Origin: a virus
Direction: 5' to 3' (one strand)
DNA length: 64,000 bases
IMG/VR virus record: IMGVR_UViG_3300031772_000007
Coordinates: 1 to 64,000 of that record
Shown: positions 6,189 to 62,011 of the stretch, piece by piece
Layout: the number at the start of each line of letters is the position of its first letter
Numbering within the stretch: the stretch's first letter is position 1
The notes under the pieces: model-generated
Told to the model about the DNA's origin: nothing
Database searches by the model: none
What the model saw: the letters and a program-made list of their open reading frames with translations, nothing else
Made by a program: the position numbers and the translations under genes

Positions 6189-6190
6189 GG

Positions 6191-7648: not shown

Positions 7649-7651
7649 GGG

Positions 7652-34670: not shown

Positions 34671-34692
34671 GGTGCTCTCCCCCTGCCTTTGC

Positions 34693-46410: not shown

Positions 46411-46652
46411 GCCTTCTGCCACCGTGCCTTCTTCAGCACGCCCTTCTTCCGCCGCGGAATCATGTTCATGTAGAGCATGTCCTTCTCGTCGAAGCAGCCG
46501 GAGTGGGCCACCATCGCCCCAAGGGCGACGGACAGCGCCTCCTCGTGTTGCTCCTGCTCGAACGTCTGCGCCTTCCGCGACACGCACTGCATCAGCTCCA
46601 GCTTGCGCCGGAGGTTGTCGAATGCCCCTCGATACGTCAGCTTGCTTCTCAT
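46407..46652 (-). CDS. hypothetical protein
   Basis: 81 aa; ATGA coupling. Confidence 0.5.
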   Translation of the reverse strand: MRSKLTYRGAFDNLRRKLELMQCVSRKAQTFEQEQHEEALSVALGAMVAHSGCFDEKDMLYMNMIPRRKKGVLKKARWQKA

Positions 46653-48148
46653 GGCCCCTCCAAGTCGAACGCCTCGAACGTCTCCTTCAGCTTGCCCTTC
46701 TTCAGCGGACGGTACTGCTCCACGCGGCAGAACGAGGACGGCCCTACCTTCCCCGCCACCGCGTCCACGTACATCGAGAAGGCTCCGTCCTCGACAGTGT
46801 AGAACCACTTCGGAACGTGCGCTGCCTTCAGCGCCGACTCGCTCTCCCGAGCCAGCGCGGTGTCGATGCCGATGCTACGCGCCCGCGGATAGCCGCCGTC
46901 CAGCCGGTCCCCGGCGTCGAGCGCCAACACCTGCTTCACCCACTCGTCGTAGGAGTACGGCTGGAACGTCTCCGCCCGCCCCTGCCGCTTGAAGCCCAAC
47001 AGCTTCACCTGCACCTTGCACCGCTCCGCTTCGGTGAGGATGTCCCCCAGCACCTCCAACGGCGTCGAGCCCATGACGTACTGCGCCGTAAGCCGCCCCT
47101 CTAAAAGCCAATCCTGCCCCTTCTCGTGATAGCCCGCCGCATGGGAGAGAGCTGTGACCTCGTCCGGGCTCGCAACCGTGTACGCGCAGGAGGAGTAGTA
47201 CGCCATCGCCACTTTCATGTCCCCCGAGCCGAGATAGTGGATGTCCCGAGTGGTGAAGTTGGCGACCATGCCGTGCTCCCGGCACTCCCTCCCGATGTCG
47301 ATGAACTTCGGATGCGAGGTGGGCTCCCCGCCACCCACCGCGATCTCCAGCACGCCCACCCCCGCCAGCTCCTTGATGATGCCCTTGAGCTTCGGGAACG
47401 ATGCCGTCTCGCCGGTCGGGGTGCTCCCCTGGTAGCAGTAGGCGCACCCGTTCATGCAGCGGTCGGTGACCTTCAGGTCCACCAGCTCCGGCACCGATGC
47501 TCGCCACACCTTCGGGTGGCAGCCCTCGTCGGCGAACGAGAGGCGCGTCCGTGCGCCCGTCTCCCGGTTGAACAGGACCCAGTAGCCGTACTTAGGGTCC
47601 TTCCGCGCCACGATGTTCACCCCCCGTTGGAAGTCGCTGCCGAAGTCCACCGGAACCCTCTCAACACCCCCCGCCTCAAGGGTTGGGTGCGTGTCCCCGT
47701 TGTCGTTCCCCCCGAGAACGGCCACCCTGTCGCTCAACACGAAGTCTCGCAGGTCCCGCGCGAACTCCAGATTGGGCTCCTTCTGCGTGCCCACCTGCGC
47801 CGGTAGCTTGTCCATCAGGCTTTGGTGGTCCACGTAGCCCTCGGGCTCCGGCCCGTCCGCCTTCTGCTTCCACTCCAGCACGCCCGGCAGCAAGTCCTCG
47901 ACGAACCGCCGCGCCATTTCCCTGTCCGGGTGGAACTGCACCCTGAACACCTCCCAGAACTGGAGCGCCACGTACTTCGCCTTCTCCTCGCGCGACGTGA
48001 GCGTGAACATCTCCCACCCAAACTCGGGGCTGCACCACGCCTCCTCGCGCGCTTCGCCGGGGCGCAGGAAGATGAGGGTGTGATCCGAGCTGCTGTTGTT
48101 CGCAAAGCCCAGCCTGACGTTATGAATCCTCGCGGTCCTCAAGCCCAC
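46649..48148 (-). CDS. radical SAM protein with N-terminal F.NNSSS.H domain
   Basis: CMNGCAYC motif, GGGEPT, NFTT; N-terminal RLGFANNSSSDH. Confidence 0.85.
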   Translation of the reverse strand: MGLRTARIHNVRLGFANNSSSDHTLIFLRPGEAREEAWCSPEFGWEMFTLTSREEKAKYVALQFWEVFRVQFHPDREMARRFVEDLLPGVLEWKQKADGPEPEGYVDHQSLMDKLPAQVGTQKEPNLEFARDLRDFVLSDRVAVLGGNDNGDTHPTLEAGGVERVPVDFGSDFQRGVNIVARKDPKYGYWVLFNRETGARTRLSFADEGCHPKVWRASVPELVDLKVTDRCMNGCAYCYQGSTPTGETASFPKLKGIIKELAGVGVLEIAVGGGEPTSHPKFIDIGRECREHGMVANFTTRDIHYLGSGDMKVAMAYYSSCAYTVASPDEVTALSHAAGYHEKGQDWLLEGRLTAQYVMGSTPLEVLGDILTEAERCKVQVKLLGFKRQGRAETFQPYSYDEWVKQVLALDAGDRLDGGYPRARSIGIDTALARESESALKAAHVPKWFYTVEDGAFSMYVDAVAGKVGPSSFCRVEQYRPLKKGKLKETFEAFDLEGP

Positions 48149-48449
48149 CTCCCAGCCGGTAGGTGGATTCCCACCGGGCCATGATTTCCTCTGCGTCGTA
48201 GAGCGCCTGCACCAACGTCGGACGCCAGCGCCCCGTCTCCAGTTGGGACGCCCTCTGGTACTGGAGCATCCCCTGTGGCGTCCGTCGCGTCTCCTGCATC
48301 TCCACCGAGGCGAACCAGCCCCCGGCTCCCTTCCGCAGCCATCCCGTCATGCACCTTTCCTCGGGAGCCAACCTGACCACCCTCACGTAGCTGCCACGGG
48401 ATATGCTCCATCCCTTCTCGGTGAGTCCCGTGCCTTCCTCGTCCGTCAC
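48120..48449 (-). CDS. small protein with ExxxRLGG tag
   Basis: GTGA coupling; WESTYRLGG. Confidence 0.6.
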   Translation of the reverse strand: MTDEEGTGLTEKGWSISRGSYVRVVRLAPEERCMTGWLRKGAGGWFASVEMQETRRTPQGMLQYQRASQLETGRWRPTLVQALYDAEEIMARWESTYRLGGGLEDREDS

Positions 48450-48979
48450 GGGCCACTCCCGAACGTCTCGTAGCGCCGTGGCGCGCAGATGATGCAGCCC
48501 CGCGGCGTCAGTTGCTCGGTGGGGACCTCCGCGCCACAGTTGGGGCACCGGGACAGTTCCGCGTACAGCTTCACCTTCCCCGCTCCCGAGATGTTGACCC
48601 CCGACTGCTCGACCACCCGCTGCGCCGGAGATTCCTCCCCGGTGAGCCGCGCCGCCGCGTCGTTCACGATGAACTGCCCCACGTCGTAGTACGTCTCGCC
48701 GGGGCTCACCTTCGTCCCATCAGCCAACTCCGCCAAGACGATGCTGTTGTCCGGCTTGAACATCCACGCCTTCGAGCCGCCCGCCGGGAACTGCGCGATG
48801 TGCTTCAGCAGGCTCTCCCCCTGCACCCACCGGACCTCGCCACTTCGCACCAGCACGTCGAGCCCGCCCCGCGTCATCTTCAGGTCCCGCCAGATGTCCG
48901 TGTACGTGCGCCACTGGCGGTCGGCGTCCCCCGGCTGGAGGACGTACTCGCTCGACCCGACGTAGCCCCAGCGGTTCAT
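48446..48979 (-). CDS. HTH-like protein with internal DAxxRLTG tag and C-terminal zinc ribbon
   Basis: TY.DIW.....RGGLD.LV..G.VR (paralog of 44946..45218); NDAAARLTG; CPNCG...CIIC. Confidence 0.6.
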   Translation of the reverse strand: MNRWGYVGSSEYVLQPGDADRQWRTYTDIWRDLKMTRGGLDVLVRSGEVRWVQGESLLKHIAQFPAGGSKAWMFKPDNSIVLAELADGTKVSPGETYYDVGQFIVNDAAARLTGEESPAQRVVEQSGVNISGAGKVKLYAELSRCPNCGAEVPTEQLTPRGCIICAPRRYETFGSGP

Positions 48980-49212
48980 AGCTCCAGAGTTACCTCCAGC
49001 ACGTCGTACAACCTGCTCCCGAGTGCCCTGATGGTTTCCAAGTCGCCGTCCACCACGAGAAGCGCCTGCGCTCGTATCGGCTTCCCCGCCAGGACGCGCT
49101 CCGCCTTCATCGCCATGATCGCCTGCGCGCACTGCGTCAGAGATTCCGCAAGGCACTCGCCCGTCTCATCCACCACCGTTGCAACCGGCGTTGCCTTCGC
49201 TCGGAGCTTCAT
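48976..49212 (-). CDS. hypothetical protein
   Basis: 78 aa; ATGA coupling. Confidence 0.5.
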   Translation of the reverse strand: MKLRAKATPVATVVDETGECLAESLTQCAQAIMAMKAERVLAGKPIRAQALLVVDGDLETIRALGSRLYDVLEVTLEL

Positions 49213-49706
49213 AGGTGCCTCGGCTTCGGCGGTCGGGGCTCCCTCCCCTGAAGACGGTCCACCGATTCCCGAGAGGCCAACTCCATGCGCTTCGCCTCGT
49301 AGGCGTCGGCCAGCACCTTGCGACAGACCGGGTCCGCTACCCTGTAGACGTGCTCCCCCGCGGGGAACAGCTTGCCGAAGCGCCAAAGCTGCCCGTACTC
49401 CTCCACGAAGCCCGACCCGGCGAAGCGCTTCGTCTGCTCGAAGATGCCGAGCTGTAGGAGAGTCCGCTGGATGCGCCATCGGGCGGATCTGCCCTCCCGC
49501 GCCCCCGTCACCGGGATGAAGAACTCGTCAGGCTCCACCTTCTCGTCCACGAGGTTCACCGTCAGCTTGTCCAGCGCCTCCCCCGCGTCGGTGGTGACGT
49601 AGAGCGCCCCGTTCCCGTTGCTGTAACGCCCCCCGTGAAGAACACAGGGATCCTCATCGAGATAGAAGCGGAACCCGTCCGCCGCCTTGAAGGGGTCCAC
49701 CCTCAC
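49209..49706 (-). CDS. DUF4313-like protein with ExxxRL.G tag
   Basis: Y.NGN.AL....GE....LTVNL...FFI...L..GI.....SGF pattern; RESVDRLQG. Confidence 0.55.
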   Translation of the reverse strand: MRVDPFKAADGFRFYLDEDPCVLHGGRYSNGNGALYVTTDAGEALDKLTVNLVDEKVEPDEFFIPVTGAREGRSARWRIQRTLLQLGIFEQTKRFAGSGFVEEYGQLWRFGKLFPAGEHVYRVADPVCRKVLADAYEAKRMELASRESVDRLQGREPRPPKPRHL

Positions 49707-50197
49707 CGCCCGCCCCCGTACCAGATAACGAGGACGCTCGGGAAGCTGGCGGAGTCCCGCTTCACTCCCTCGGGGTTCCCGGGGCACCCGAAGGTGATGC
49801 GCCCTGGGAGGAACCGCGTCGTCACCGAATTCCACGGCTTGTCCCGCGAGTGCTCGATGTGCTCCTGCCACCACTTCCTGTCCGTCCAGCTCGGGAGCAA
49901 CGCGACCACCAGACAGCAGTGCGCCACAATCTCCTTCCGCGCCTTCTCCAGCCACGCCCCGATGTTGGAATAGGGCGGATTGAGGAACACCCGCGCACCC
50001 CTCCACGACTGGCGGAGCCCGTTCTTCTTCTTGGTGAAGTACCGGCGGCACTTCGCGCTCTCCCTGGAAGCGCACGGGTCCAGGGTGAAGTGGAACTCCG
50101 CGTCGAGCTTCTTGTAGAACTCCGTCGGCGTGAACTGATCGTCGAGCGACTTGGTAGGCGGAGCGTTCCGGCAGGCGTCCTCCGGCAGCCACCCCAT
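49703..50197 (-). CDS. phage DNA N6-adenine methyltransferase (Dam-like)
   Basis: TP..FY..L..EF.FTLDPCA...NGL.QSW....VFLNPPYS...LLP..TD..WW...GRI.F (alternative start 50302). Confidence 0.9.
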   Translation of the reverse strand: MGWLPEDACRNAPPTKSLDDQFTPTEFYKKLDAEFHFTLDPCASRESAKCRRYFTKKKNGLRQSWRGARVFLNPPYSNIGAWLEKARKEIVAHCCLVVALLPSWTDRKWWQEHIEHSRDKPWNSVTTRFLPGRITFGCPGNPEGVKRDSASFPSVLVIWYGGGR

Positions 50198-50213
50198 CTG
50201 CCCCGTCTCCGGG

Positions 50214-50432
50214 TCAACCGTCAAAGCCAAGCTGACGCGCCGCTTCGAGCGCAACCGCTTCTTCAACGTCCGCCGCTTCGTAACAGGCATAGAATTTCCC
50301 ATCGCGTTTCCTCGCCGCGCAGATAGCTGCCCCGCCCCGCCGCCGGGCAAGAGCGCCCAGCGCCAGGGCCAACGTCTCCTCGTCGATGTCGTACATGATG
50401 GAGGCTTCCAAGAGGGTGAGCAGCTTCTTCAC
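50214..50432 (-). CDS. small HTH-like protein with EAxxQLG tag variant
   Basis: MKKLLTLLEASIMYDI...LEAARQLGFDG. Confidence 0.5.
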   Translation of the reverse strand: MKKLLTLLEASIMYDIDEETLALALGALARRRGGAAICAARKRDGKFYACYEAADVEEAVALEAARQLGFDG

Positions 50433-50457: not shown

Positions 50458-51867
50458 TCATTTTCCCTTCGGCAGCTCCGCGCCACCCGGAAGGGCTCCG
50501 GCCATCTGCCGCCCGAACTCCTCCAACCCACTCGCCGCAACCCCGAACTTCTCTAGCTCCGTGCGGGTTTCGTACAGTCCCCGCTTGTAGTCGAAGAAGT
50601 AGACGAGGTCGTTGTTGGAGTCCACCGCCGCCGGAACGAGAACCCGGTCGAAGAAGTTGTAGACCCCCATCGCGCTCTTGGTCGGGATGTTCCACGCCCC
50701 GCGCACCCGGTCGAAGACCGACTCCTGCCGGAGCTTCCGCATCAGGCGGTCCTTCCCGCGCACCCCGTCGTCCTGCAACGGGTCCAACGTCACCCGCGCG
50801 TCACCGCTAATGTCCGCGAAGCGCACGCTGCCCCGTCGGAAGGCGATTCGGATGGCCTCGGTGAATGTACCCCGCGTCACCTGCCCGCCCTCCAAGTCCT
50901 CCGGGGAAAGCCCACAGCAAGTGGAGGCGTTGGTCAGCTCCTTGTAGTCAGGGTCCGAGCAAGCGAACCGCACCCCGCGCTTCTCGCACTCCTCCCACAT
51001 CCCGTAGACGTAAGGCTTCTTCCAGTGCCGCGACAGGCGAGGCTGCCCGCGAGCGTGCCGAGACATCGCCTTGTAGATGGCCGTGAAGTCGAAGTCCGCC
51101 GCCTTGCCCATCCGGTCGAAGTACCGCCTGGAGAACTCGAAGTCCGGGAAGGGGATGCACAGAAACTCGGTGGACAGCGCCTTCGCTCCGGCGTCCGCCG
51201 CCGCCGTCAACAGCTCCCGCCAGGTTCCGGTCGAGATGCCGGGGCAGAAGGGGCGGAAGCGCAGAATCGTCCTGATTCCCCGCTTCGACAGCGCCTCCAC
51301 CGTTTTGATGCGGTCCTGCGGGCTCGGGGCGCTGACCTCGATCTTCCGCGCGATCTCCGGGTCGTAGGTGATGATGCTCGACTGGAAGCCCCATCTGCCC
51401 GCGTTCGCCGCGAACACCTCCAGAAGCTCCTCGTCCTGCCAGAACGCGCCCTTCGAGCTGAAAAGCACGGGCCATTTGATGTCGGTGAGGAAGCGGAGAA
51501 CTTCCAGCGTCTTCTCTCGGTACTTCCCGAGCGCGTAGTGATCGAAGGCGTCCGCCAGCCCGCCCCAGTGGAGGATGAGATGCTGGTCAACAAACGCCTG
51601 CCGGTGCGCCTTCTGGTCCTTCGACAAGTCCTCGGGCGCTCCCTGGAACAACCGCCTGAACCGGGGGATGTTGATGAACGACAGGTCCGGCAGCCCGCCG
51701 TAGTCCTGATCGTCCTCGCCGTGCGGAACGCGCGAGCTGTCCTTGATGGGTCCGGCAAAGCAGTAGAGGCACCCGTAGCTGCACCGGCTGATGGCGTCGA
51801 ACGTGAAGGGCAGCCCGCACTCGTAATACTCGCTGGAGAGGCGCGGGGAGTTGTAGCAATCAGCCAC
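50458..51867 (-). CDS. radical SAM enzyme (spore photoproduct lyase-like), DNA modification cluster
   Basis: CSYGCLYC; GG..D.F; IE..APSP..R; R.RPF.PG. Confidence 0.88.
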   Translation of the reverse strand: MADCYNSPRLSSEYYECGLPFTFDAISRCSYGCLYCFAGPIKDSSRVPHGEDDQDYGGLPDLSFINIPRFRRLFQGAPEDLSKDQKAHRQAFVDQHLILHWGGLADAFDHYALGKYREKTLEVLRFLTDIKWPVLFSSKGAFWQDEELLEVFAANAGRWGFQSSIITYDPEIARKIEVSAPSPQDRIKTVEALSKRGIRTILRFRPFCPGISTGTWRELLTAAADAGAKALSTEFLCIPFPDFEFSRRYFDRMGKAADFDFTAIYKAMSRHARGQPRLSRHWKKPYVYGMWEECEKRGVRFACSDPDYKELTNASTCCGLSPEDLEGGQVTRGTFTEAIRIAFRRGSVRFADISGDARVTLDPLQDDGVRGKDRLMRKLRQESVFDRVRGAWNIPTKSAMGVYNFFDRVLVPAAVDSNNDLVYFFDYKRGLYETRTELEKFGVAASGLEEFGRQMAGALPGGAELPKGK

Positions 51868-52507
51868 CGAGCACCACCCGCGCGAGCGCGCTGCCATCCA
51901 AGGTGGGCTCCTTCGCCGCCGCGTTGTCCAGCCGGTACTTCCCCAGCACCTCCAGCGCCGCCGTCGCCGTCGGGAAGACGACCGGAACGTTCAGCGGATC
52001 CGGGGCTGCCTCGGGCTCCGCTGGCGACAACCCCGCGCCCACCGCCTCCTCGACCCGCCCGAGCGATGTCTTGAGCACTTCGATCTCATCCGCAGAGAAG
52101 CCCGTCACCCCCTGGAACCACTTGCCGTCGTCCCCGTTCTCCGCCAGCCACGAGCTGACGTAGGAGGACAGAGCTTGCTGGTCCCAATCCGCGCTGATCT
52201 GATTCAGCGCGAGGACGAGAGCCCTCGCCTTCTGGTCGTCGGGGAGGTCCACGACAACAACCTCCGCCTTGGGCAGCCCAGCTTCCTTCATCACGTCGTA
52301 ACGGTGGTGCCCGTTGATGATCTCGTAGCGGTCCGGCGCTCCCGGGGATTCCCGAACGATGATGGGCTGCACCACCCCCAGCTCCTCCATCGAGGTACGC
52401 AGGTGCGCCCGCATCGCATCGCCCATGACCCTCGGGTTGCCGAACTTGAACGGGTCCAGGCTCGACACCGGGACCGTCTTCAACGCCTTCAGCCGTGACT
52501 GAATCAT
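51860..52507 (-). CDS. ParB/Srx-like nuclease-domain protein (paralog 2)
   Basis: NPR.M...L..S.EELG.VQPI.VR.....YEIINGHHR. Confidence 0.85.
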   Translation of the reverse strand: MIQSRLKALKTVPVSSLDPFKFGNPRVMGDAMRAHLRTSMEELGVVQPIIVRESPGAPDRYEIINGHHRYDVMKEAGLPKAEVVVVDLPDDQKARALVLALNQISADWDQQALSSYVSSWLAENGDDGKWFQGVTGFSADEIEVLKTSLGRVEEAVGAGLSPAEPEAAPDPLNVPVVFPTATAALEVLGKYRLDNAAAKEPTLDGSALARVVLGG

Positions 52508-53196
52508 TGCCCCTCCAGGAACTTCGCCAGAGCCCCGCCGTCGATGGCGTCCGCCCTCAGAGTCCCGAAGCGGGTGCCCAGCCTGAACTTCCCCAGCACC
52601 GCGTCCGCCTCCTCCCGGGTGGCGAACTGCGCCTTCAACACCTTCGGCTGGTTCGCGGCGACAGCCTCCTCCGCCATCTTCGCCACGAGATCGCTCGGGT
52701 CCTTCTCCGGTGCCTCCGAGAGCTGTTGATTCGTGGCGTCGATGGTCCCCGCCGACAGCACCTCGATCTCGTCCCCCGAGAAGCCTGTTACCCCCTTGAA
52801 CCACTCCCCGCCCGCCGTGTTGTCGTTGAGCCACGCCGAGACGTAGTTCGACAGCGCGCTGTAATCCCACTCCGCGCCGATCTGGTTCAGGGCCAGCACG
52901 AGCGCCCGTGCCTTCCGGTCGTCCGGCAGGTCCACCACCACCGCCTCGATCTCCGTCGCCCCCGAGTCCTTCAGCACCCCGTAGCGATGGTGCCCGTTCA
53001 GAATCTCGTAGCGCCCCTTCGTCCGGGGGCTCGGTCGGACGACGATGGGCTCCACCACCCCCATCTCGGTGAGAGACTGCTTCAGCGTCTCCGTCATCCG
53101 GTCCGTCATCTTGCGCGGGTTCCCGAACGCGAACGGGTCCACCGCGCCGATGGCGATGCGCTTCAACGCCTTCAGCTTCGACTCGATGTTGCTCAT
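52504..53196 (-). CDS. ParB/Srx-like nuclease-domain protein (paralog 1)
   Basis: NPR.M...L..S..EMG.VEPI.VR.....YEILNGHHR. Confidence 0.85.
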   Translation of the reverse strand: MSNIESKLKALKRIAIGAVDPFAFGNPRKMTDRMTETLKQSLTEMGVVEPIVVRPSPRTKGRYEILNGHHRYGVLKDSGATEIEAVVVDLPDDRKARALVLALNQIGAEWDYSALSNYVSAWLNDNTAGGEWFKGVTGFSGDEIEVLSAGTIDATNQQLSEAPEKDPSDLVAKMAEEAVAANQPKVLKAQFATREEADAVLGKFRLGTRFGTLRADAIDGGALAKFLEGQ

Positions 53197-53735
53197 GTCC
53201 CCTCCTGCCTCAGAAACTCCCTGAGCGACCGCTCCAGAACCTCGGGCACTCGCCGGGCATCCAGCTCGACCCTATCCCCTTCCGGGAAGGTTTCCCAGAA
53301 ACGGCGAGACTTCGTCTCCCGCCCCTTCACCCACGAGGCGTTCTGCTTGCTCCCACGGGTGTCCCTGCGCGCCTGCGCCTCCTCCGGTGGGAGCGTCAAC
53401 AGCGCGCACACCAGCCGGATGTTCGGGGCGTAGGGCAGCGAACGGAAGAAGCTCACCGGGAGCGCGTTGCTGAACCTGTCCCCGTCGAACAGCGTCAGCT
53501 CCGCGCGCATCGCCAGGTGCGTCGTCCAGAAGTTCAGCGCCTCCGCCGCCCCGTTGTAGGGCACGGTGTCCGCCCCATCGAACGGCCCGCCCGCGTAGTG
53601 CCCCGCGGCAACGATGCGCTGCCCGATGGTCCACTTCGGCTTCGGGTTGAGGCGACTGAGCGGTTCGAGGAGCCTCCGCGCCAGCGTCGTCTTGCCCACC
53701 CCCGGCGTCCCCACCAACCAAAGTACGGTCTTCAC
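53193..53735 (-). CDS. P-loop kinase, putative 5-hydroxymethyluracil DNA kinase
   Basis: GTPGVGKTT; G.Y....FDG.D; FDGDRF; R..RGS.Q..SW.KGR.TK; adjacent to aGPT-Pplase2. Confidence 0.8.
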   Translation of the reverse strand: MKTVLWLVGTPGVGKTTLARRLLEPLSRLNPKPKWTIGQRIVAAGHYAGGPFDGADTVPYNGAAEALNFWTTHLAMRAELTLFDGDRFSNALPVSFFRSLPYAPNIRLVCALLTLPPEEAQARRDTRGSKQNASWVKGRETKSRRFWETFPEGDRVELDARRVPEVLERSLREFLRQEGT

Positions 53736-54862
53736 TTCTGCGCCCTCCTCACCTCATCGTTGAAGTCGTTGGCAAAGCAGCCCCACTCCTTGTCCATCAT
53801 GATCACCTGTCCGGTCAGCCGGTAGTGGTTCATCTTGCGAGGACAGAGCCCCGGGTCCTTGGGGTTGTCCTCCAGCCGCAGGTGCTCCGGCAGGCATTCC
53901 TTCCGCGCGTCCCAGAACAGATGCAACCGTTCCCCCCATGCCTCCTCGGTCTTCTTCAGCCGGAGGTAGAGCATGTCGTTGTAGACGTTCGGGTAGCGTC
54001 GGTTGACCCGGTGCCAGCCCTTGTACGTACAGAGGGTGCTCTCCATCGTGAAGTAGCCCACGTCCCGGTAGAAGCTCTCCCCCGCCGCGCGGACCTTCAT
54101 CTCCTCCAACAGCTCCGCCGCCTCCTTCTCCAGCCAGCGCAGGACCGCGGGGCTGTAGGTGCCGTCAAAGCTCGTATTGTCGTCGTGCCAGTCCAGGTCG
54201 TCCCGGCCCAACACCTTGCAGAGCCCATTCCGGTGACTCTTGCTGCCCTGCATGTCGTCGAGAAAGAGCTGATCGCAGTCGATCCTCACCCCGTTGATGC
54301 GTAGGTACTCCGCGTAGCTGAACGAACTCAACCGCCCGAAGTAGACGAAGAAGGTGTTGATCGCCTGCCAGAGCTGTCGGAAGTTGGTGCGCTCGTCCGC
54401 CGGGGTCAGCCGATTGAAGAACTCCTCTTGCGAGCGCCCGCCCAACAGCGTGACGTAGTTCTGAACGCAGGTGAGGAACTTGGTCTTAAAGTACCGCCGG
54501 TCGGTGTCGAACTCCAACCGCGTGTAGTTCTCCGCGAACCACCGCTTCATCCGGTCGAAGTCCACCCCCACGAGAGGGAATTCCCGGAAGATGAGCCAGC
54601 TCGTCGGCGGGTGCTGCGTGTTCCCGTTGATGAAGGCGAACCACAGCCGTTGCTCCGTGCTCCACCCCAGCCGGTCTGCCAGGTAGGGAAGAACGTAATA
54701 CACCCCCCCTGGATGAGAACGGTAGCGAAGGTGAAACTCCCAGAACCGAAGGAAGACCTCCCGGCGGTAGCGGGACTCACGGAAGTCCGTGCCCACGCGG
54801 AGCGCCGTCTCCTCTGTCTGCCTGTGGAGGGCGCAGTAGCGCCCCGGTTCCGCCGTCTTCAT
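53732..54862 (-). CDS. aGPT-Pplase2 (amino acid:DNA transferase, thymidine hypermodification)
   Basis: YRREVFLRF..FHL.YRSHPG.VY, FDTDRRY, FGRLS.FSY.EYL, GSKSHRNGL, ESTLCTYK, RRYPNVY.DM. Confidence 0.85.
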   Translation of the reverse strand: MKTAEPGRYCALHRQTEETALRVGTDFRESRYRREVFLRFWEFHLRYRSHPGGVYYVLPYLADRLGWSTEQRLWFAFINGNTQHPPTSWLIFREFPLVGVDFDRMKRWFAENYTRLEFDTDRRYFKTKFLTCVQNYVTLLGGRSQEEFFNRLTPADERTNFRQLWQAINTFFVYFGRLSSFSYAEYLRINGVRIDCDQLFLDDMQGSKSHRNGLCKVLGRDDLDWHDDNTSFDGTYSPAVLRWLEKEAAELLEEMKVRAAGESFYRDVGYFTMESTLCTYKGWHRVNRRYPNVYNDMLYLRLKKTEEAWGERLHLFWDARKECLPEHLRLEDNPKDPGLCPRKMNHYRLTGQVIMMDKEWGCFANDFNDEVRRAQK

Positions 54863-55902
54863 GGTTCCCCCAAGGCTCCTCGCATCGCGGCGAGCGTCGG
54901 GCGCGACCCGACAATCCAGAACAGCGCCTTCCCGCTCCCCCAGAAGTGGACGAACTCCTTGGCGTGCTTCCGCAGGTACGTCATCACCTTGCCCTCGTAG
55001 GTGGGGTGGAAGTCGATGCCGCCGTAGGTGAAGGGCATCTCGTCCTGATAGCTGGCGAAGTGCGTCGCATGCAAGTCGTAGTGAACCAGCCGGTAGGGAG
55101 CGCGCTTCGTCGGTTGGAAGCTCGCCGCCTGATCCGGGTCGTTCTTGTAGTCCCGGTTGAACAACGCCCGAATCTGGATGCCCGAGAACTGCTCGATGGC
55201 GCGAAGCCGGTCCTCAATCCAGACCAGCTTCGTCGGCCCTACTCCAAACAGGACGACCTCCCGAAGCCGCGGGGGCAGCCTGCGCGCGATGCCGTACAGC
55301 ACCGAGACACAGCTATTGCAGCTCCCCGCGGGCATGTAGATGGCCTCCACGTCATCCGGGATGTTGAGAACCTGCTCGCTTCCGAGTCGGTGGAAGGCGT
55401 CAATCTCCGCAGGGTCGTCGTCCACCGTGATGCCGTACTTCAAGACGTAGTGCCCGGGGTGCTCCTTAGCCAGCTCCGCCACCGCCCGTTGCAGCGCCGG
55501 ATTGTAGGCCACCGGGTTGTACCTAAAGCGGGCTCCGAGCGCCCGAGCGATGGCGACGTTCTCATGCTTCCCCGCCGCCTTTTCCGTCGTCGCACCGATG
55601 ACCAACAGCGTCTCCAACCCAAAGTGCCGAGCAACCGCGGTGCCCATGCAGAGTTGCGGGCTCTTGACGCTCGCCCCGGAGAGCAACCCCTTCGCCCCCG
55701 CCGCCGCTGCCCGGCTCACAAGCCAGATGCACTGGCGGAGCTTCGCCCCGTTGATGCCTCCGTACCCGAGAGGCGCGAAGCGGTCCTCCCGCTTGAACCG
55801 GATCGCCCCCATTTCCTCCACCGGGGTCCGGGTAAGCAGGTGCTTCTCCCACCGCGACTGCTCCCGGTCCAAGCTCAACGTGTCGAAGACGGACCCTCTC
55901 AC
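54859..55902 (-). CDS. PLP-dependent enzyme (fold type II), putative decarboxylase for the modified base
   Basis: TPVE..FKRED.F.P.G.GGING.KLRQ; SPQ; PAGS.NS; FHPTYEGK. Confidence 0.85.
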   Translation of the reverse strand: MRGSVFDTLSLDREQSRWEKHLLTRTPVEEMGAIRFKREDRFAPLGYGGINGAKLRQCIWLVSRAAAAGAKGLLSGASVKSPQLCMGTAVARHFGLETLLVIGATTEKAAGKHENVAIARALGARFRYNPVAYNPALQRAVAELAKEHPGHYVLKYGITVDDDPAEIDAFHRLGSEQVLNIPDDVEAIYMPAGSCNSCVSVLYGIARRLPPRLREVVLFGVGPTKLVWIEDRLRAIEQFSGIQIRALFNRDYKNDPDQAASFQPTKRAPYRLVHYDLHATHFASYQDEMPFTYGGIDFHPTYEGKVMTYLRKHAKEFVHFWGSGKALFWIVGSRPTLAAMRGALGEP

Positions 55903-56171
55903 TTTCGCAGCTCCGCGTCGCGCACTCCACGAACCCCCAAGGACAGCAACGCCCTCCACACCTTCATCCTGCCCCACCGCTCCTCGTTGGTGATGGCGTA
56001 CCAGGCACCCCCACGGGGACCGAGGGGCTTGTAGGTGATCGCCCCGATGGAGAGCCCCTTCTTGATCATCGTGTACGAGAGACAGGGAACGTCATACCAC
56101 TCCTGCGCGGGGCGGTAGTTCCCCACCCCGAACTGCTTCAGAATGGCGTCGAAGTCGGGCTCGTACTCCAT
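55899..56171 (-). CDS. hypothetical protein
   Basis: 90 aa; coupled to genes on both sides. Confidence 0.55.
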   Translation of the reverse strand: MEYEPDFDAILKQFGVGNYRPAQEWYDVPCLSYTMIKKGLSIGAITYKPLGPRGGAWYAITNEERWGRMKVWRALLSLGVRGVRDAELRK

Positions 56172-57787
56172 CAGGCCACTTCCACCCGTCCTTCAGCCAC
56201 CTTCCACCGCTGCACGCACGGAACCCGCGCCGCCAGCTCCTCGTTGTGCGTGATGATGACGACCGCTCGTTCCCGGGCCAGATCGTCGAGCACACCCACA
56301 ACCGCCTCGATTCCAGCCGAGTCGAGCCCGTCCAGAATTTCGTCAAGGAACAGGGTTCCCCGCCCCGCGAAGGCAAGAAGTAGGGCCAGGTCTATCCTCC
56401 TCCGCTCCCCCGCAGAAGTGGCCTTGTAGCCGTAGCCACCGCCAGCTCCCTGCACCTGCAAACTGATGGCGTCCGACACCCCGCCAGTCTTCTTCTCGGA
56501 GTACGGCTTCAGCTCCAGCTTGAGCCCCTTCCCCGCGAGCCGCGGGAGCCAGGCGTTCGCCGCCGCCTCCAGCCCCCCAAGCAGCTTCGCCAGGATGCCA
56601 GCCCGCGCCCCGCGGAGCCCCAACACCATCTCCGCCGCCTTCAACACCTCAACCTCGTGCTCCTGCTTCGCCCGCGCTGCTTCCGCCTTGGCGATGTTGT
56701 CGGCGCAGACCTCCTCCGCCTTAGCCGCCAGCACCCGTACCTTCTCGGTGTTCGCCCTGAGAGCCGCCGAACGTTCGATGTTCCCCAGCTCCGCGTCGAG
56801 CGCCGTGGCCTTCTCCCGGAGCTTGCGGAGGGCTTCCTGTACGTCCCGCGCCTCGTCCCGGGTGTCCGACACCGCCTCGTTCGCCTGCGCCTGCTCTGCG
56901 CGGGTGTCGGTCTGAATCTTCTGGATCTGCTCCTTCAGCCCCTTCCGCAGTTCCTCCGGCACAGCCTGCCCGCAAGAGTCGCAGATGCCTGACTCCCCCA
57001 GCCGGTTGAGCCGCCGGGTCAACGCCGCCAGCTCCCGCTCCGCGCCGCCCGTGTTGACGCTGTGCTTGGCGATCTCGTCTTGGAGCGACGCCAGCTCGGT
57101 GTCCCCCTTCCTGATGTGCTCCCGTAGGTGGTCCCGCCGCTGCTTCAGCGCCCCCACCGCTTCCTCGGTCCCCATCGGCATCCCCGCGAGCGCCTGCTTC
57201 GCATCTTGCTGCCGCTGCCGCGCGTGCTCGATCTCCACCTCCGCTATGCGCTTTCGGTTCGCCGCGTCACCCAACTCCCGCTCCGCGGTGTGGAGCTGCG
57301 CCCGGCATTTCTCCAGCGCGGCATCAAAGCGACCAAGCCCCAACATCGACTCCAAGAACAGCTTGCGCTCCTTGTCGGTGGCCTGCGTGAAGTGCGCCGC
57401 GTCCGCCGAGCTGAAGACGTGAGTGCGCCTCCAAATCTCGAACGAGCCGATGATCTCCTCCAGCGCCTCCTGCGCCTTGGTCGTCGTCTCGTAGTCGCGC
57501 CCCTTCCCTTCGTAGGTGAAGGTCAGCGCGGTCTTGGCTCCCTTGCGCTCCCGCCGAGCCACCAGAGCCCCCGCGGTGAACTCCGCAAAGCCCTTCAGCG
57601 AGTCGATGGCGAACGGGAGGACGCCCCGAAGCGTCTCACCCCATCCTGGGTACGCCACCCCCTCGATGATGCTCGACTTGCCCGAGCCATTCGGCCCCAC
57701 AACCAAAACAACTCCTCTCTTGGGAAAGGCCAGCTCCGTCTTCTCGTGCGTCGTGAAATTCACCAGCTTGAGTGTCCCGAGATCCAT
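56171..57787 (-). CDS. sbcC: SbcC/Rad50-like ATPase (gp46-like)
   Basis: GPNGSGKSS, coiled coil with CDSC zinc hook, SAGERRR signature, LFLDE, ITH. Confidence 0.93.
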   Translation of the reverse strand: MDLGTLKLVNFTTHEKTELAFPKRGVVLVVGPNGSGKSSIIEGVAYPGWGETLRGVLPFAIDSLKGFAEFTAGALVARRERKGAKTALTFTYEGKGRDYETTTKAQEALEEIIGSFEIWRRTHVFSSADAAHFTQATDKERKLFLESMLGLGRFDAALEKCRAQLHTAERELGDAANRKRIAEVEIEHARQRQQDAKQALAGMPMGTEEAVGALKQRRDHLREHIRKGDTELASLQDEIAKHSVNTGGAERELAALTRRLNRLGESGICDSCGQAVPEELRKGLKEQIQKIQTDTRAEQAQANEAVSDTRDEARDVQEALRKLREKATALDAELGNIERSAALRANTEKVRVLAAKAEEVCADNIAKAEAARAKQEHEVEVLKAAEMVLGLRGARAGILAKLLGGLEAAANAWLPRLAGKGLKLELKPYSEKKTGGVSDAISLQVQGAGGGYGYKATSAGERRRIDLALLLAFAGRGTLFLDEILDGLDSAGIEAVVGVLDDLARERAVVIITHNEELAARVPCVQRWKVAEGRVEVA

Positions 57788-58000
57788 CTACTCGCCCTCC
57801 CCGAGCATCTGCTCCAGCGCCAACGCAACCTCCGCATGGGCATCCGCCCCTGTGTATTCAACAGAGCGCAATTGCTTTACTGCGTCCCAAGCTGTATCCA
57901 GCATCTCCGGCAAATGCCGCCTGACATTTCGATTCGCCGCTGCGAACGCCGCCGCCCAGACCATCTGCTCGCCCCTCGACATCTTCTTCCATGCACTCAT
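57788..58000 (-). CDS. hypothetical protein
   Basis: MSAWKKMSRGEQMVWAAAFAA...; ATGA coupling. Confidence 0.5.
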   Translation of the reverse strand: MSAWKKMSRGEQMVWAAAFAAANRNVRRHLPEMLDTAWDAVKQLRSVEYTGADAHAEVALALEQMLGEGE

Positions 58001-58224
58001 GGCCGGTCCCACCCCACTCGCTTGCTCGCTGCCGCCGGGTTGTCCGCGGGACCTCCCAGCCGTTCCGTCGCATCCATCGCCTGCTCCTTCTCGCGCATCC
58101 GCTTCAGGTAGTAGTCCCCGACCCCGCCTTGAAAGAGGGGATCTCCCATCGGCGCGAACCTCCAGCGCCGAAGCAGCTCCTCGTAGGAAGCGTTATCGAT
58201 CCACTGCTTCGTCGCGGCATCCAT
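57997..58224 (-). CDS. small protein with DAxxRLGG tag
   Basis: WIDNASYEELLRRWRFAP.GDP.FQG..G.YY domain plus MDATERLGG. Confidence 0.65.
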   Translation of the reverse strand: MDAATKQWIDNASYEELLRRWRFAPMGDPLFQGGVGDYYLKRMREKEQAMDATERLGGPADNPAAASKRVGWDRP

Positions 58225-58882
58225 CGTTCCAGACCTCCTCCTCCACCGGGGGTGCCGGTGGGAAGCCCTCCCTCTGAATCCAGATCAGCTTGAAGCCCTG
58301 CTCCCGAAGCCGCCCCAGCAACTTCGAGTAGGCGTGCTCCGCGTAAATCCACCAGACCTTCGCCTCCGGCCACCAGCCCGTGCGGACCAGAGACTCCTTC
58401 GCCGGGGTGTGCCCCCAGATGGCGTTGAACTGCTCCTTGAGCCTGTCCTTCATGTCGAAGTGCGTGCGGAAGGCCAGCGCCAGCCCCGGACACGAACGGT
58501 CCGGGACGAACGCCCAGAAGGCGTAGGCGGTCCGCTTCAACGGCTTCACGAAGGGAAGGTCCGCAGGGCTGTCCTCCGCCCCGAGCGCGACAGCCCCCAC
58601 CCGCGCGCTGTTCTCCTGCGCGTGGTCCAGCACCGCCCGGTAGATGCGCTCCATCAGCCTGCGCGCTTCTCGGTGCTCCAGGGGTTGCGCCAGCTCCAGG
58701 TACACCGTGTACGCGCTCTTGCCCGCCGCCGGGTAGTTCGTCCCCGCCGCGCACACCGCGCCACCAGGAAGACCATCGACCTTCAGCGCGTACATCGGAA
58801 CCCCAAGCTCCCAGCGAGCGATGCGCTTCTCCCTCGGGTCCTTGCGATTCCCGCGCGGGATGTCGCCGATGTCGTAAGGCAT
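58193..58882 (-). CDS. hypothetical protein
   Basis: 229 aa; GGAG RBS. Confidence 0.55.
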   Translation of the reverse strand: MPYDIGDIPRGNRKDPREKRIARWELGVPMYALKVDGLPGGAVCAAGTNYPAAGKSAYTVYLELAQPLEHREARRLMERIYRAVLDHAQENSARVGAVALGAEDSPADLPFVKPLKRTAYAFWAFVPDRSCPGLALAFRTHFDMKDRLKEQFNAIWGHTPAKESLVRTGWWPEAKVWWIYAEHAYSKLLGRLREQGFKLIWIQREGFPPAPPVEEEVWNDGCRDEAVDR

Positions 58883-58887
58883 GGCTC

Positions 58888-59526
58888 CTACCCCGCCCGG
58901 TGCTCACGAGCCGCCGCCACCGCTGCGTTGATCTGCGCCGCCGTCTCCTCCTGCGTCCCCCGGGCGTTCACCACCACCCATCGAGTGGGCTCCACCGCAC
59001 GCTGCCGGTCCCACAGCTCCCGATAGAACCCAGCCACTTGCGGCATGAAGCTCGCCGCCTTCTCGTAACGGTCCCGGCGGTCCGGTCGGCGCTCCGCAGA
59101 GTCCTTCTCGTCCACGTCGAGCAGGATGAACAAGTCCGGCTGCGGGAGCCATCGGTGCAACCCGATCAGGTAATCCCCGTCGAGCCCGTCCGCCCGCCCG
59201 TAGGCATAGCCGCTCGGCCAGTAGCGATCCAGCACCACGTTCCCGCGAGATGCCACCTCGAACAGCTCGGTGGCGACCTCCATCCGATTGGCGACCTGGA
59301 GAGCCTGAAACACGAGAGGGTCCAGCAGATTTCCGTACTGCGCCGACCACTCCCCCAATTTCGCCGGTTGCGCCCGCCAAAGCCTATCGAGGTGCGCGTA
59401 GATGAGCTTCCCAGTGATGGTTTCCTTGTTCGGGAACTTCCAGACCCGCGCGCCCATGCGCTTCGCCAGCAGCTCGGTGTGCGTCCCCTTGCCGCAGGCG
59501 TCGATGCCCTCAAGACAGATGATCAC
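58888..59526 (-). CDS. tmk: thymidylate / dNMP kinase
   Basis: IICLEGIDACGKGT, VVLDRYWPSG.AY, PQPDL..LLDV, RYE. Confidence 0.92.
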   Translation of the reverse strand: MIICLEGIDACGKGTHTELLAKRMGARVWKFPNKETITGKLIYAHLDRLWRAQPAKLGEWSAQYGNLLDPLVFQALQVANRMEVATELFEVASRGNVVLDRYWPSGYAYGRADGLDGDYLIGLHRWLPQPDLFILLDVDEKDSAERRPDRRDRYEKAASFMPQVAGFYRELWDRQRAVEPTRWVVVNARGTQEETAAQINAAVAAAREHRAG

Positions 59527-59543
59527 CTTCCCACCCTCCCCCT

Positions 59544-59858
59544 CTACGAGCGAAGCTCGCGTAAGTCGAATACCCCTGCCAAGTCCTTCTCCTGCTTCAT
59601 GATGAGGCGCGCGTACCGGCTCGGGTAGTTGTTGCACAGCTTGAACTCGCTGCCGTCGTCGGTCGTCTCCAACCACACGTTCCAGCGCAAGACCTCCCAG
59701 AGCATCTTGATACCGACCTTCCTCTTGCCCTTGCACACCGCCGCCCGGGCGAGCCTCACCAGCTCGTCGTAGACGTTTGGGTTCTCCCCGTGGAACTTCA
59801 GGAACGATCTCTGGATCTTCGAGGTGGGCTCCTCGAACAGTGGCAGTTGCGTCGTCAT
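59544..59858 (-). CDS. conserved phage protein
   Basis: F.KFH..NP.VY...WE.LRW...FKL.NN....YARL.M pattern. Confidence 0.7.
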   Translation of the reverse strand: MTTQLPLFEEPTSKIQRSFLKFHGENPNVYDELVRLARAAVCKGKRKVGIKMLWEVLRWNVWLETTDDGSEFKLCNNYPSRYARLIMKQEKDLAGVFDLRELRS

Positions 59859-60964
59859 GCCGCCCCCCCAAGTAGCTGCGTCACCCGCTCCTTGACCTCT
59901 GGGCGCAGAGCCTCGTTCTCCAGGGGCATCTGCGCGATGTAGTCGGACACCGCCTGCTCCGCCGTCTCCGCACTCCGCGTCACCCCCGCCGCCGTCCGCA
60001 GAGCCACCTCCGCCTCGGTCGTGTCCGGCACCACCTCGCCCACCACCCCCAACCGCTCCGCCAGCGCCTCCAGCTTCCCCTGCGCCGCCGCCACCGCCGT
60101 CGGCGTTCCGTCTGCCTTCAGCCGGAGGAACAGCTTGCACCCCTCGGGTGCCTTCAACACCTCCTCCTCGGTGGTGACGAACCGCGGACCGGAGATGGCC
60201 TTCTTCGTCCAGTTCCCCCTCTTGGAGTCCCAAACGAGAATGGTCCCGTATCCCTCCAACCCCGGGTTGCGCCAGTCGGTCGGCACGAGCGCCCCGATCT
60301 GCACGAGGTCCACCCCCTGCACCCCGTCGTGCCCCGACCAGCTCCGGTGAGGGTGCCAGTGCCCCGCCACCACCAGAGCGATGCCCAAAGAGGAACACTG
60401 CCCCGCTACGCTGTCCAGCGTCACCGCGTCCGAGGAACCCTTCAACCAAGGTGGCGTCGCCCCGTCTTGAAGACCAAGGTGTAGCGCAAGAACTCTCGGC
60501 GTAGGAGCCCCGTCCGTCGTGCCCCGAAGATCGTTCACAACCCGCGGGAGCCAGTCCTCCGCCTTCCCCGTGCGAAACGGAACCGCCCAGACCTCCCCGC
60601 CATCGACGTAGTACCGAAGCGGCTGGTCGAGAACGTGCGCCACCGGCACCAACGGTCCCAGTGCGTTGTCCCCCTCGGCGTCGCTCGTCATGTCGTGATT
60701 GCCCGAGAGGATGTACGTCGTCACCTTCTCCGCGTACCGGGCGATGATCTCCTGCACCGCCCGGATGACCTGCGGCTCGGGACGGGAGGAGTCGAACAGG
60801 TCCCCGCAGATGAACAGCGCGCCGCAGTCCTTGCTGATCTCCTCGTAGGCGCGCTTCAGGGCATCGAGCGTTAGGCGGCAACGGTCGTTGATGCCCGCCT
60901 TCGTCTGCCCGCCGTAGAGCTTCGAGTTCCCGATGTGACAGTCCGCTATGAAGGCAACGCGCAT
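59855..60964 (-). CDS. sbcD: SbcD/Mre11-like nuclease (gp47-like)
   Basis: AD.H, GDLFD, GNHD, GHWH metallophosphoesterase motifs. Confidence 0.92.
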   Translation of the reverse strand: MRVAFIADCHIGNSKLYGGQTKAGINDRCRLTLDALKRAYEEISKDCGALFICGDLFDSSRPEPQVIRAVQEIIARYAEKVTTYILSGNHDMTSDAEGDNALGPLVPVAHVLDQPLRYYVDGGEVWAVPFRTGKAEDWLPRVVNDLRGTTDGAPTPRVLALHLGLQDGATPPWLKGSSDAVTLDSVAGQCSSLGIALVVAGHWHPHRSWSGHDGVQGVDLVQIGALVPTDWRNPGLEGYGTILVWDSKRGNWTKKAISGPRFVTTEEEVLKAPEGCKLFLRLKADGTPTAVAAAQGKLEALAERLGVVGEVVPDTTEAEVALRTAAGVTRSAETAEQAVSDYIAQMPLENEALRPEVKERVTQLLGGAA

Positions 60965-61941
60965 GGTTCCTTCTCCTTCTTGCCGGTGATCTTCCCTTCC
61001 ATCACCGAGTCCTCCCCCTTCGGATCGGTGTCCGCCCACCCCAGCGCCTTCAGAGCCTCGGCGTGCCCCTTGTCGGTCGCCTTCGTACCCGCAGGTATCA
61101 GCTCGCGGTCCTTGGCGTGGTTCACCGTCGTCCAGCGGTCGTCCCACCCGCCCGCAACATGGAGGCGAGTGTCCAACTCGTGCTGCGCCTCCGCCACCTT
61201 GTTCTTCACGCACTTCATGTGAACCCCGATGAAGCTCCCATCCCTCTTGTCCGGGCGCATCCTCACGCGGACCGAGGAGTAGAACTTGATGGCGTTGCCC
61301 CCGGGGGTCGTCTCCGGGTTCCCGTAGACCACCCCGATCTTCATCCGTGTCTGGTTCACGAACATCATGTGCGCCCGCTTCTTCGGAAGGATCTTCACGA
61401 GGTACGTGCAGAGCTTCGAGTAGAACCTTGCCCGGATGCCCATGTATTCGTCTCCGGGGTCGCCCTCCAGCTCCTCCCTCGTTGGCAGAGCAGGTACCGA
61501 GTCGAGAACGATGAGCGTCGGAGGTCCATCGTCCGGCAACGACTTCAAGAACTGGATGAGCATGTTGCCTCCTTCCTGGAGATTCGGCGGGTCCAGCGCC
61601 AGCACCTCGTCCGGATCCACCCCGAAGGTCCGCGCCCGCGTCTCCGTGAAGGCGTGCTCCGCGTCGATGAGCGCGAAGATGCCCTTCATCTTCTGCACCG
61701 CCGCCCCTGCCGAAGCGACCAGACTGCTCTTGCCCGAGGACTCCGGCCCGAACCACTCGCTCATTCGACCGATGGGGAGCCCACCGACCCCGAGCAGGTG
61801 ATGGTCCACCGCCACAATGCCTGTGGGGATGGCCTCCTTCACGTCCGCGCCGCCGCCCCCCGAGAGGGTTGCGATGGAGCCCGCCCCATACTTCTTCTCG
61901 ATGCCCGCCTGAATCTTCGCCAGCAGTTGCAGCCTGTCCAT
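60946..61941 (-). CDS. recA: RecA/UvsX-like recombinase
   Basis: GPESSGKS, IDAEHA, IVLDSV, NQ.RMKIGVVYGNPETTPGGNA.KFY.S.R, KNKVA. Confidence 0.96.
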   Translation of the reverse strand: MDRLQLLAKIQAGIEKKYGAGSIATLSGGGGADVKEAIPTGIVAVDHHLLGVGGLPIGRMSEWFGPESSGKSSLVASAGAAVQKMKGIFALIDAEHAFTETRARTFGVDPDEVLALDPPNLQEGGNMLIQFLKSLPDDGPPTLIVLDSVPALPTREELEGDPGDEYMGIRARFYSKLCTYLVKILPKKRAHMMFVNQTRMKIGVVYGNPETTPGGNAIKFYSSVRVRMRPDKRDGSFIGVHMKCVKNKVAEAQHELDTRLHVAGGWDDRWTTVNHAKDRELIPAGTKATDKGHAEALKALGWADTDPKGEDSVMEGKITGKKEKEPCALPS

Positions 61942-61956
61942 GCGCTCCCCTCCGGT

Positions 61957-61995
61957 GGAAAAACCGGAGATCGGCCAGCTTCGACCGATCTCCGG
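61957..61995 (-). terminator. rho-independent terminator between SSB and recA
   Basis: 11-bp stem CCGGAGATCGG/CCGATCTCCGG followed by TTTTT on the minus strand. Confidence 0.7.
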
Positions 61996-62011
61996 TACTA
62001 CCCCCCTGCAC

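Follow-up and report, generated by a model that had tools for sequence, protein, structure and literature searches.

A phage thymidine hypermodification operon in which a radical SAM enzyme and ParB-like proteins are candidate producers of 5-hydroxymethyldeoxyuridine

We analyzed the first 64 kb (64,000 nucleotides, called the window below) of a linear, 93,825-bp virus record with 66% GC from a sediment metagenome (IMG/VR record IMGVR_UViG_3300031772_000007). On the minus strand, which carries almost all window genes, an operon running from 55902 to 50458 encodes a pyridoxal 5'-phosphate (PLP) enzyme, an amino acid:DNA transferase (AADT), a P-loop kinase, two ParB-like proteins (ParB-A and ParB-B) and a radical S-adenosylmethionine (SAM) enzyme (rSAM1) that resembles spore photoproduct lyase (SPL). 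These AADT, PLP, kinase, ParB and radical SAM families support its assignment as a thymidine hypermodification cluster. The reading that we favor, and hold to be somewhat probable, is that ParB-assisted radical SAM oxidation of thymine yields 5-hydroxymethyl-deoxyuridine (5-hmdU), which is then phosphorylated, serylated and decarboxylated. The six genes, from upstream to downstream, are as follows:

54859-55902, minus strand: fold-type-II PLP enzyme (phrog_3650, E 6e-97; Pfam PALP, E 2.3e-7, under the gathering score)
53732-54862, minus strand: AADT of aGPT-Pplase clade 2 (PF18724, E 9.4e-22, 78 bits against a cut-off of 26)
53193-53735, minus strand: P-loop kinase, putative 5-hmdU DNA kinase (Walker A motif GTPGVGKT; weak, sub-cut-off Pfam matches to Ploopntkinase3/AAA_18)
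52504-53196, minus strand: ParB-A (ParB_N, E 3e-12; N-terminal ParB/Srx domain)
51860-52507, minus strand: ParB-B (ParB_N, E 2e-12; start at an ATGA overlap with ParB-A)
50458-51897, minus strand: rSAM1, SPL-like radical SAM enzyme (PF04055, E 1e-5; NCBIfam PA0069/Rv2578c families)

Third-position GC per frame backs the reading frames of all six genes, which are intact and have a strong coding signal. The first four junctions are stop/start overlaps of the form ATGA or GTGA, and at the last one the overlap of ParB-B and rSAM1 is between a few and 38 bases long, according to which start codon is taken. Because neighboring genes overlap at stop and start or by a few bases, the six can be regarded as one operon. 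A preliminary description of this DNA had listed the same six families as contiguous and coupled, and all of them were recovered at these positions on the minus strand.

The PLP enzyme and the AADT tie this cluster to Salmonella phage ViI, which makes 5-aminoethoxymethyl-dU (5-NeOmdU) without a radical SAM isomerase and in which gp226 is the proven O-seryl-thymidine decarboxylase and gp247 the clade-2 transferase of that pathway (PMC8989533). The PLP enzyme aligns with gp226 (orf00226) over its full length (BLASTP, 38% identity, E 6e-88), is ~40% identical to the same gene throughout Ackermannviridae, and has a candidate PLP lysine, K53, in the motif NGAKLRQ; weak matches link it to 1-aminocyclopropane-1-carboxylate deaminase (1RQX; NCBIfam ACC_deam). 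The AADT is 30% identical to gp247 (orf00247; E 2e-28), 46% identical to mycobacteriophage gene 3 and 49 to 62% identical to proteins of 80 IMG/VR loci, and its profile matched no PDB chain by sequence. Judged by these alignments, the two proteins are orthologues of gp226 and gp247. With a P-loop kinase, they make up what this phage shares with the ViI pathway (Lee et al. 2018, 2021; PMC5889632, PMC8989533). ViI differs in making 5-hmdUTP before replication with a dUMP hydroxymethylase and in having dispersed genes without ParB or radical SAM, whereas the genes here form a single operon and a hydroxymethylase was not found.

The cluster of Pseudomonas phage M6 for 5-aminoethyl-dU (5-NedU) comprises gp51 (AADT), gp52 (PLP enzyme), gp53 (SPL-like radical SAM enzyme) and gp54 (kinase) (PMC8989533), so that four families, namely, clade-2 AADT, fold-type-II PLP enzyme, SPL-like radical SAM enzyme and P-loop kinase, are common to both phages. 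M6 differs in having a thymidylate-synthase-like gp58 nearby and no ParB. The preliminary description had regarded the SPL-like radical SAM enzyme as a departure from M6, which it is not, as gp53 is itself SPL-like (PMC8989533). Its label "M6-like" stands for the families but not for the individual proteins. BLASTP to gp51 (glycine transferase) or gp52 (decarboxylase) gave no match below E 1, and the only BLAST match to M6 gp51-54 is a weak one between rSAM1 and gp53. The comparison that it proposed with M6 gp51-54 and ViI came out mixed: gp226 and gp247 of ViI were matched, gp51 and gp52 were not, gp53 was matched distantly by rSAM1, and gp54 was matched by the kinase. The kinase falls in phrog_800, the family under which gp54 is annotated, and its family profile aligns with this proven M6 kinase (hhalign 93.9%, E 1.6e-7).

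Where does the 5-hmdU come from? This is the central question of the cluster, because neither a hydroxymethylase nor a TET/JBP enzyme was found genome-wide. To our knowledge, all routes to hydroxymethylated DNA pyrimidines use either a thymidylate-synthase-like enzyme acting on nucleotides or an O2-dependent TET/JBP enzyme acting on DNA. CheckV estimates the 93.8-kb phage genome to be 100% complete. Pfam searches of all its open reading frames (ORFs) of at least ~180 aa detected no thymidylate-synthase-like or TET/JBP protein, and tblastn of the genome with the M6 and Montesquieu hydroxymethylases and one mycobacteriophage TET found nothing. Local hidden Markov models (HMMs), built from 14 hydroxymethylases and 44 TETs out of the sister loci described below, also found nothing in this genome; the same models recover 12 and 55, respectively, of the 80 sister loci. 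PF00303 and PF12851, searched against whole records, gave nothing for this phage but matched all positive controls (M6 and a contig with a hydroxymethylase; mycobacteriophage Prince and a contig with TET). Such a search missed PF18724 in this very genome, where the gene is present, and negatives were counted only with positive controls. The preliminary description, which had seen no dUMP hydroxymethylase in the window and had proposed a search of the rest of the genome, was therefore correct but understated the case, as the absence extends to the whole 93.8 kb and to TET/JBP. Unannotated proteins of 160 to 340 aa are encoded nearby:

48446-49156: unannotated protein
49209-49700: unannotated protein
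58193-58882: unannotated protein

Protein-atlas look-ups of the first and the third gave no dioxygenase or thymidylate synthase lead.

The sister clusters show how related phages supply the precursor. The sister set consists of the 80 closest IMG/VR loci from an alignment-based AADT scan (49 to 62% identity). A TET/JBP gene is present in 55 of them, 32 of which have the full set of ParB, TET, PLP enzyme, AADT and kinase (phmmer), and a dUMP hydroxymethylase is present in 12. Of the 13 loci with neither source, 6 end at a contig edge beside the AADT, and one (L152) has the arrangement PLP-AADT-kinase-rSAM1. The PLP enzyme occurs in 59 of the 80 loci and a kinase beside the AADT in 57, and phmmer with M6 gp51 and gp52 matched none. 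A radical SAM gene was not found in 79 of the 80, L152 being the exception; since the PLP enzyme is nonetheless present in 59, this PLP/AADT lineage needs no isomerase. In the AADT tree, the nearest neighbor of this phage is a TET-linked locus (62% identity), and TET-, hydroxymethylase- and rSAM-linked rows are intermixed, suggesting that the 5-hmdU source gene has been swapped repeatedly on a conserved backbone. In L152 (positions 5875-8468), the rSAM1 gene is interrupted by a 310-aa ORF with weak matches to Vsr/DUF559-type endonucleases, probably a mobile insertion.

Experiments have shown ParB to be an activator of one subclass of phage thymine dioxygenases when these act on double-stranded DNA, and the clusters concerned are linked to kinases and AADTs (PMC13229309). 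These clusters of ParB and 5mYOX, i.e., TET/JBP clade C1 (O'Toole et al., PNAS 2026, PMC13229309; e.g., genes 1-4 of mycobacteriophages Prince/Zemanar), contain the same AADT/PLP/kinase lineage (46 to 62% identity for the AADT) and share with this phage an often tandem ParB-like partner, a site upstream of the terminase and a post-replicative logic. The difference is that 5mYOX/TET was not found here and that an SPL-like radical SAM enzyme takes its place next to ParB. The ParBs of the 5mYOX clusters, which have an N-terminal ParB/Srx domain and no recognizable helix-turn-helix (HTH) and lie beside the oxidase, have their like here in two copies. ParB-A carries GHHR in place of the canonical GERR motif, and the domain scan picked up ParB_N only, with no HTH family detected. 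In its AlphaFold2 (AF2) model (pLDDT [predicted local distance difference test] of 80), short helices come after an N-terminal ParB/Srx domain, and Foldseek matches the model to the N-terminal regions of ParB, Noc and KorB (E ~1e-7). ParB-A and ParB-B are recent paralogues, 52% identical and sisters in the tree (Shimodaira-Hasegawa-like approximate likelihood ratio test [SH-aLRT], 99). They group loosely with rSAM-linked ParBs, outside the main TET-adjacent ParB clade; tandem ParB pairs are common beside TET too. In the literature searched, neither a radical SAM enzyme as the origin of 5-hmdU nor a pairing of radical SAM and ParB for DNA modification is reported.

The rSAM1 family has 45 homologues in a large protein collection and 457 relatives in IMG/VR, the latter obtained by an alignment-based scan that succeeded where a related-locus search from the single rSAM1 sequence found none; homologue P0002 is 53% identical. 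tblastn of rSAM1 against 50,697 deposited phage genomes gave no match, and a gut-type member of the family gave one marginal match. Our viral neighborhood counts refer to the best 80 of the 457 relatives, which collapse to 27 groups at 80% identity. In 75 of these 80 loci, rSAM1 has a ParB-like gene a short way upstream on its own strand, and 26 of the 27 groups contain ParB. Between or beside the two genes are found a TET-associated glycosyltransferase (14 of the 27 groups), a P-loop kinase (13), a SAM synthetase (8), an AADT (7), an APH-type kinase (4) and a GNAT protein (3); Pfam matches on representatives confirmed each of these families (AADT, E 6.5e-9; TET-associated glycosyltransferase, E 1.7e-10). 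None of the 80 viral loci contains TET or a hydroxymethylase, and neither was found in three rSAM1-bearing phage genomes that CheckV rates 98 to 100% complete. A crude motif scan, which is weak evidence, detected no C5-cytosine methyltransferase in any of the loci. On two contigs that are 98% identical and come from different samples (L049, 6114-8228; L051, 9176-11290), the two functions share one 705-aa frame, in which residues 5-246 resemble the TET-associated glycosyltransferase and residues 271-683 belong to the rSAM1 family. When longer fusions of rSAM1 were sought, intein-bearing proteins were all that turned up.

The same module occurs in cellular genomes. Among prokaryotes, scanned with one genome per species, the family is found in 79 species genomes, nearly all of them strict anaerobes from gut, rumen and sediment, with Segatella, Selenomonas, Lachnospiraceae and methanogens as named host groups. 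Cultured strains of Segatella copri (HDE04 and H-2632) and Selenomonas ruminantium (S137) carry a ParB-ParB-kinase-rSAM1 module. The 79 neighborhoods contain ParB (65), kinase (44), AADT (29), GNAT (24), SAM synthetase (19) and glycosyltransferase (18), and TET and hydroxymethylase are found in none of them. The two ParB genes, which the preliminary description took for insertions, are thus the constant partner of rSAM1, and the two kinds of gene appear to travel as a module of their own. The closest viral relative of rSAM1 (37% identity) lies on the 108.6-kb, 69% GC contig IMGVR_UViG_3300037486_000582 (L006), where the large terminase is 45% identical to that of this phage and ParB-rSAM1 sits ~2.7 kb upstream of the terminase; neither an AADT nor a PLP enzyme nor a kinase could be detected on this contig.

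rSAM1 consists of a radical SAM core (about residues 7-315) followed by a family-specific C-terminal domain (316-479). The CxxxCxxC motif occupies residues 39-46 (C39/C43/C46), and four extra cysteines (C27, C304, C327 and C328) and W402 are conserved as well. The best PDB match of its AF2 model (pLDDT 87.6) is SPL (4FHF; Z 18.3, root mean square deviation 3.5 Å over 262 residues), a match that covers the entire SPL chain and lies ~2 Z units above those to other radical SAM enzymes; by sequence, the rSAM1 profile matched no PDB chain, SPL included. SPL handles a thymine-methyl radical in DNA, and the modeled fold of rSAM1 fits chemistry on the thymine methyl group. The likeness to SPL (4FHC, 4FHF), a radical SAM enzyme acting on the thymine methyl/methylene in DNA, comprises the fold and the CxxxCxxC motif. 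The differences are that rSAM1 adds the 160-aa C-terminal domain and the four conserved cysteines and that SPL belongs to a sporulation context, whereas rSAM1 belongs to a phage modification context with a ParB partner.

On these grounds we favor a four-step pathway that would act on thymine in finished phage DNA and bypass both known routes to 5-hmdU. In the first step, rSAM1, aided on double-stranded DNA by both ParB-like proteins, would abstract a hydrogen from the C5-methyl group of thymine by means of the 5'-deoxyadenosyl radical, an abstraction that is plausible in the light of SPL chemistry, and one-electron oxidation and capture of water would then give 5-hmdU or an equivalent activated thymine. 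The P-loop kinase would convert this to 5-phosphomethyl-dU, and the AADT would swap the phosphate for an amino acid, most likely serine attached through its oxygen. Finally, the PLP enzyme would decarboxylate the adduct, with 5-(2-aminoethoxy)methyl-dU or a close analogue as the predicted product. The last three steps are drawn from the published enzymology of homologous proteins (PMC8989533). The first, including its chemistry, we infer from gene context: rSAM1 would oxidize the thymine methyl together with ParB because it replaces TET beside ParB amid consumers of 5-hydroxymethyl-pyrimidines, with no known producer and in mostly anaerobic hosts. An O2-dependent dioxygenase would not work in strictly anaerobic hosts. 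This reading gives each gene of the operon a role, and we consider it the most economical. A broader proposal, for and against which the balance seems to us about even, is that the SPL-like radical SAM family and its ParB partners constitute an oxygen-independent oxidase of thymine (5-methylpyrimidine) in DNA, the anaerobic counterpart of TET/JBP.

Several points weigh against ParB-assisted oxidation. We know of no radical SAM enzyme that hydroxylates a DNA base. Many rSAM1 loci have a kinase and no recognized transferase, which our pathway leaves unexplained. This phage, with its 66% GC, may have a host that is no anaerobe. The completeness of the 93.8-kb record is a CheckV estimate, and the record shows no terminal repeats. 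Many of the phage proteins belong to no recognizable family, and a hidden oxidase may be among them. A dTMP-kinase-like protein is encoded in the genome, as is a fusion of uracil-DNA-glycosylase with family-A DNA polymerase (UDG-PolA), and both also occur in phages that produce 5-hmdUTP before replication. Thousands of divergent 5mYOX-like sequences carry no Pfam TET/JBP annotation (PMC13229309). Finally, the distant homology of rSAM1 and gp53 leaves room for a role in tailoring, in which rSAM1 may act later in the pathway.

That last role is part of the strongest rival explanation, which we regard as unlikely: rSAM1 would be a tailoring enzyme like M6 gp53, acting after the AADT on the appended group, and 5-hmdU would come from a phage enzyme that has escaped recognition, for instance a dioxygenase or hydroxymethylase of divergent sequence among the proteins without an assigned function. 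M6 has the same set of four families, and rSAM1 and gp53 are homologous, with a weak, partial BLASTP match (E 5e-5 across 76 residues) and an hhalign probability of 96.9% (19% identity, 237 columns). The unannotated proteins near the operon and the many 5mYOX-like sequences without Pfam annotation would leave room for the missing enzyme, although the atlas look-ups of two of the former yielded no such lead. However, the architecture of rSAM1 is unlike that of gp53, from which it differs in domain layout and gene neighborhood: the cluster motif starts at residue 39 in rSAM1 and at residue 125 in gp53, and the extra C-terminal domain exists only in rSAM1. The PLP enzyme and AADT are of the type of ViI, which has no radical SAM enzyme (PMC8989533), and 79 of the 80 sister clusters do without one. 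Moreover, the rSAM1 family is found in AADT-free loci, beside glycosyltransferases or with ParB alone, where it cannot act on an amino-acid adduct because the AADT is absent.

A second rival, which we consider improbable, keeps thymine as the substrate: rSAM1 and ParB would activate it to a product other than 5-hmdU, by radical coupling or through a phosphorylated or thiol-linked intermediate, and the kinase would have a substrate unlike those in M6 and ViI. It draws on the same gene-context evidence as the oxidation to 5-hmdU, and both the four extra conserved cysteines and the loci with a kinase and no known transferase would suit it. Against it, the known substrates of the neighboring families (5-hmdU DNA kinase homologues, AADT and TET-associated glycosyltransferase) are 5-hydroxymethyl-pyrimidines or their phosphates (PMC8989533, PMC13229309), and by its profile the kinase is a homologue of gp54, for which 5-hmdU DNA kinase activity is proven. 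Very improbable, in our judgment, is a separate function of rSAM1 and ParB (SPL-like repair, packaging control or anti-defense) beside a hypermodification remnant that is inactive for want of a precursor: SPL is indeed the best fold match and the module often lies directly upstream of the terminase, but translational coupling joins rSAM1 to the genes for the kinase, the AADT and the PLP enzyme, the six genes are all intact with a strong coding signal, the family is fused to a TET-associated glycosyltransferase in other phages, and over 100 loci have it alongside modification enzymes.

If ParB-assisted radical SAM oxidation is correct, it would be new enzymology, the first radical SAM enzyme that installs an oxidized base in DNA, and the oxidase family would feed hypermodification of DNA with amino acids, acetyl groups and sugars in the phages of anaerobes, being wired in this phage to enzymes of proven function. 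It would account for DNA hypermodification by phages whose hosts are strict anaerobes, among them the abundant Segatella/Prevotella phages of the gut and those of the rumen, and would widen the recently recognized part that ParB plays in assisting enzymes that modify DNA bases. It could also provide a means of functionalizing thymine site-selectively without oxygen. At this locus the idea can be put directly to the test: the enzymes that act later in the pathway are orthologues of characterized ViI proteins, so that the output of the whole pathway could be recognized as a known nucleoside.

With the cluster as the query, megablast matched none of the 50,697 deposited phage genomes. The other features of interest in the window and the genome are as follows:

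34089-34877, minus strand: peptide deformylase (PF01327, E 1e-40), among structural genes
46649-48148, minus strand: second radical SAM protein, 499 aa (radical SAM core from about residue 226; N-terminal domain without an assigned family)
49703-50350, minus strand: Dam-type N6-adenine DNA methyltransferase (PF05869, E 5e-26), the next gene downstream of the operon, after a 107-nt gap
56171-62797, minus strand: recombination and nucleotide block just upstream of the operon (SbcC-like, dTMP-kinase-like, SbcD/Mre11-like, RecA and gp32-like single-stranded DNA-binding proteins)
58888 to about 59511, minus strand: dTMP-kinase-like protein, within this block
59855 to about 60950, minus strand: SbcD/Mre11-like protein, within this block
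63407-64000 of the window and on to genome position 67084, minus strand: family-A DNA polymerase with an N-terminal uracil-DNA-glycosylase domain and an intein with an HNH endonuclease
Genome 75432-76630, minus strand: third ParB_N protein, adjoining a sigma-70 region-2 protein and far from the cluster

The Dam-type methyltransferase is probably a second, independent DNA modification of the phage. The second radical SAM protein belongs to a large, uncharacterized family (at least 565 homologues, some of them intein-bearing), which is separate and does not co-occur with rSAM1 loci, and we reject it for now as a member of the pathway. The third ParB_N protein clusters with ParB-A and ParB-B in the tree (SH-aLRT 86). 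UDG-PolA fusions have been reported from phages with T-modified genomes (PMC13697223), and third-position GC drops across the intein stretch of the UDG-PolA gene in this one.

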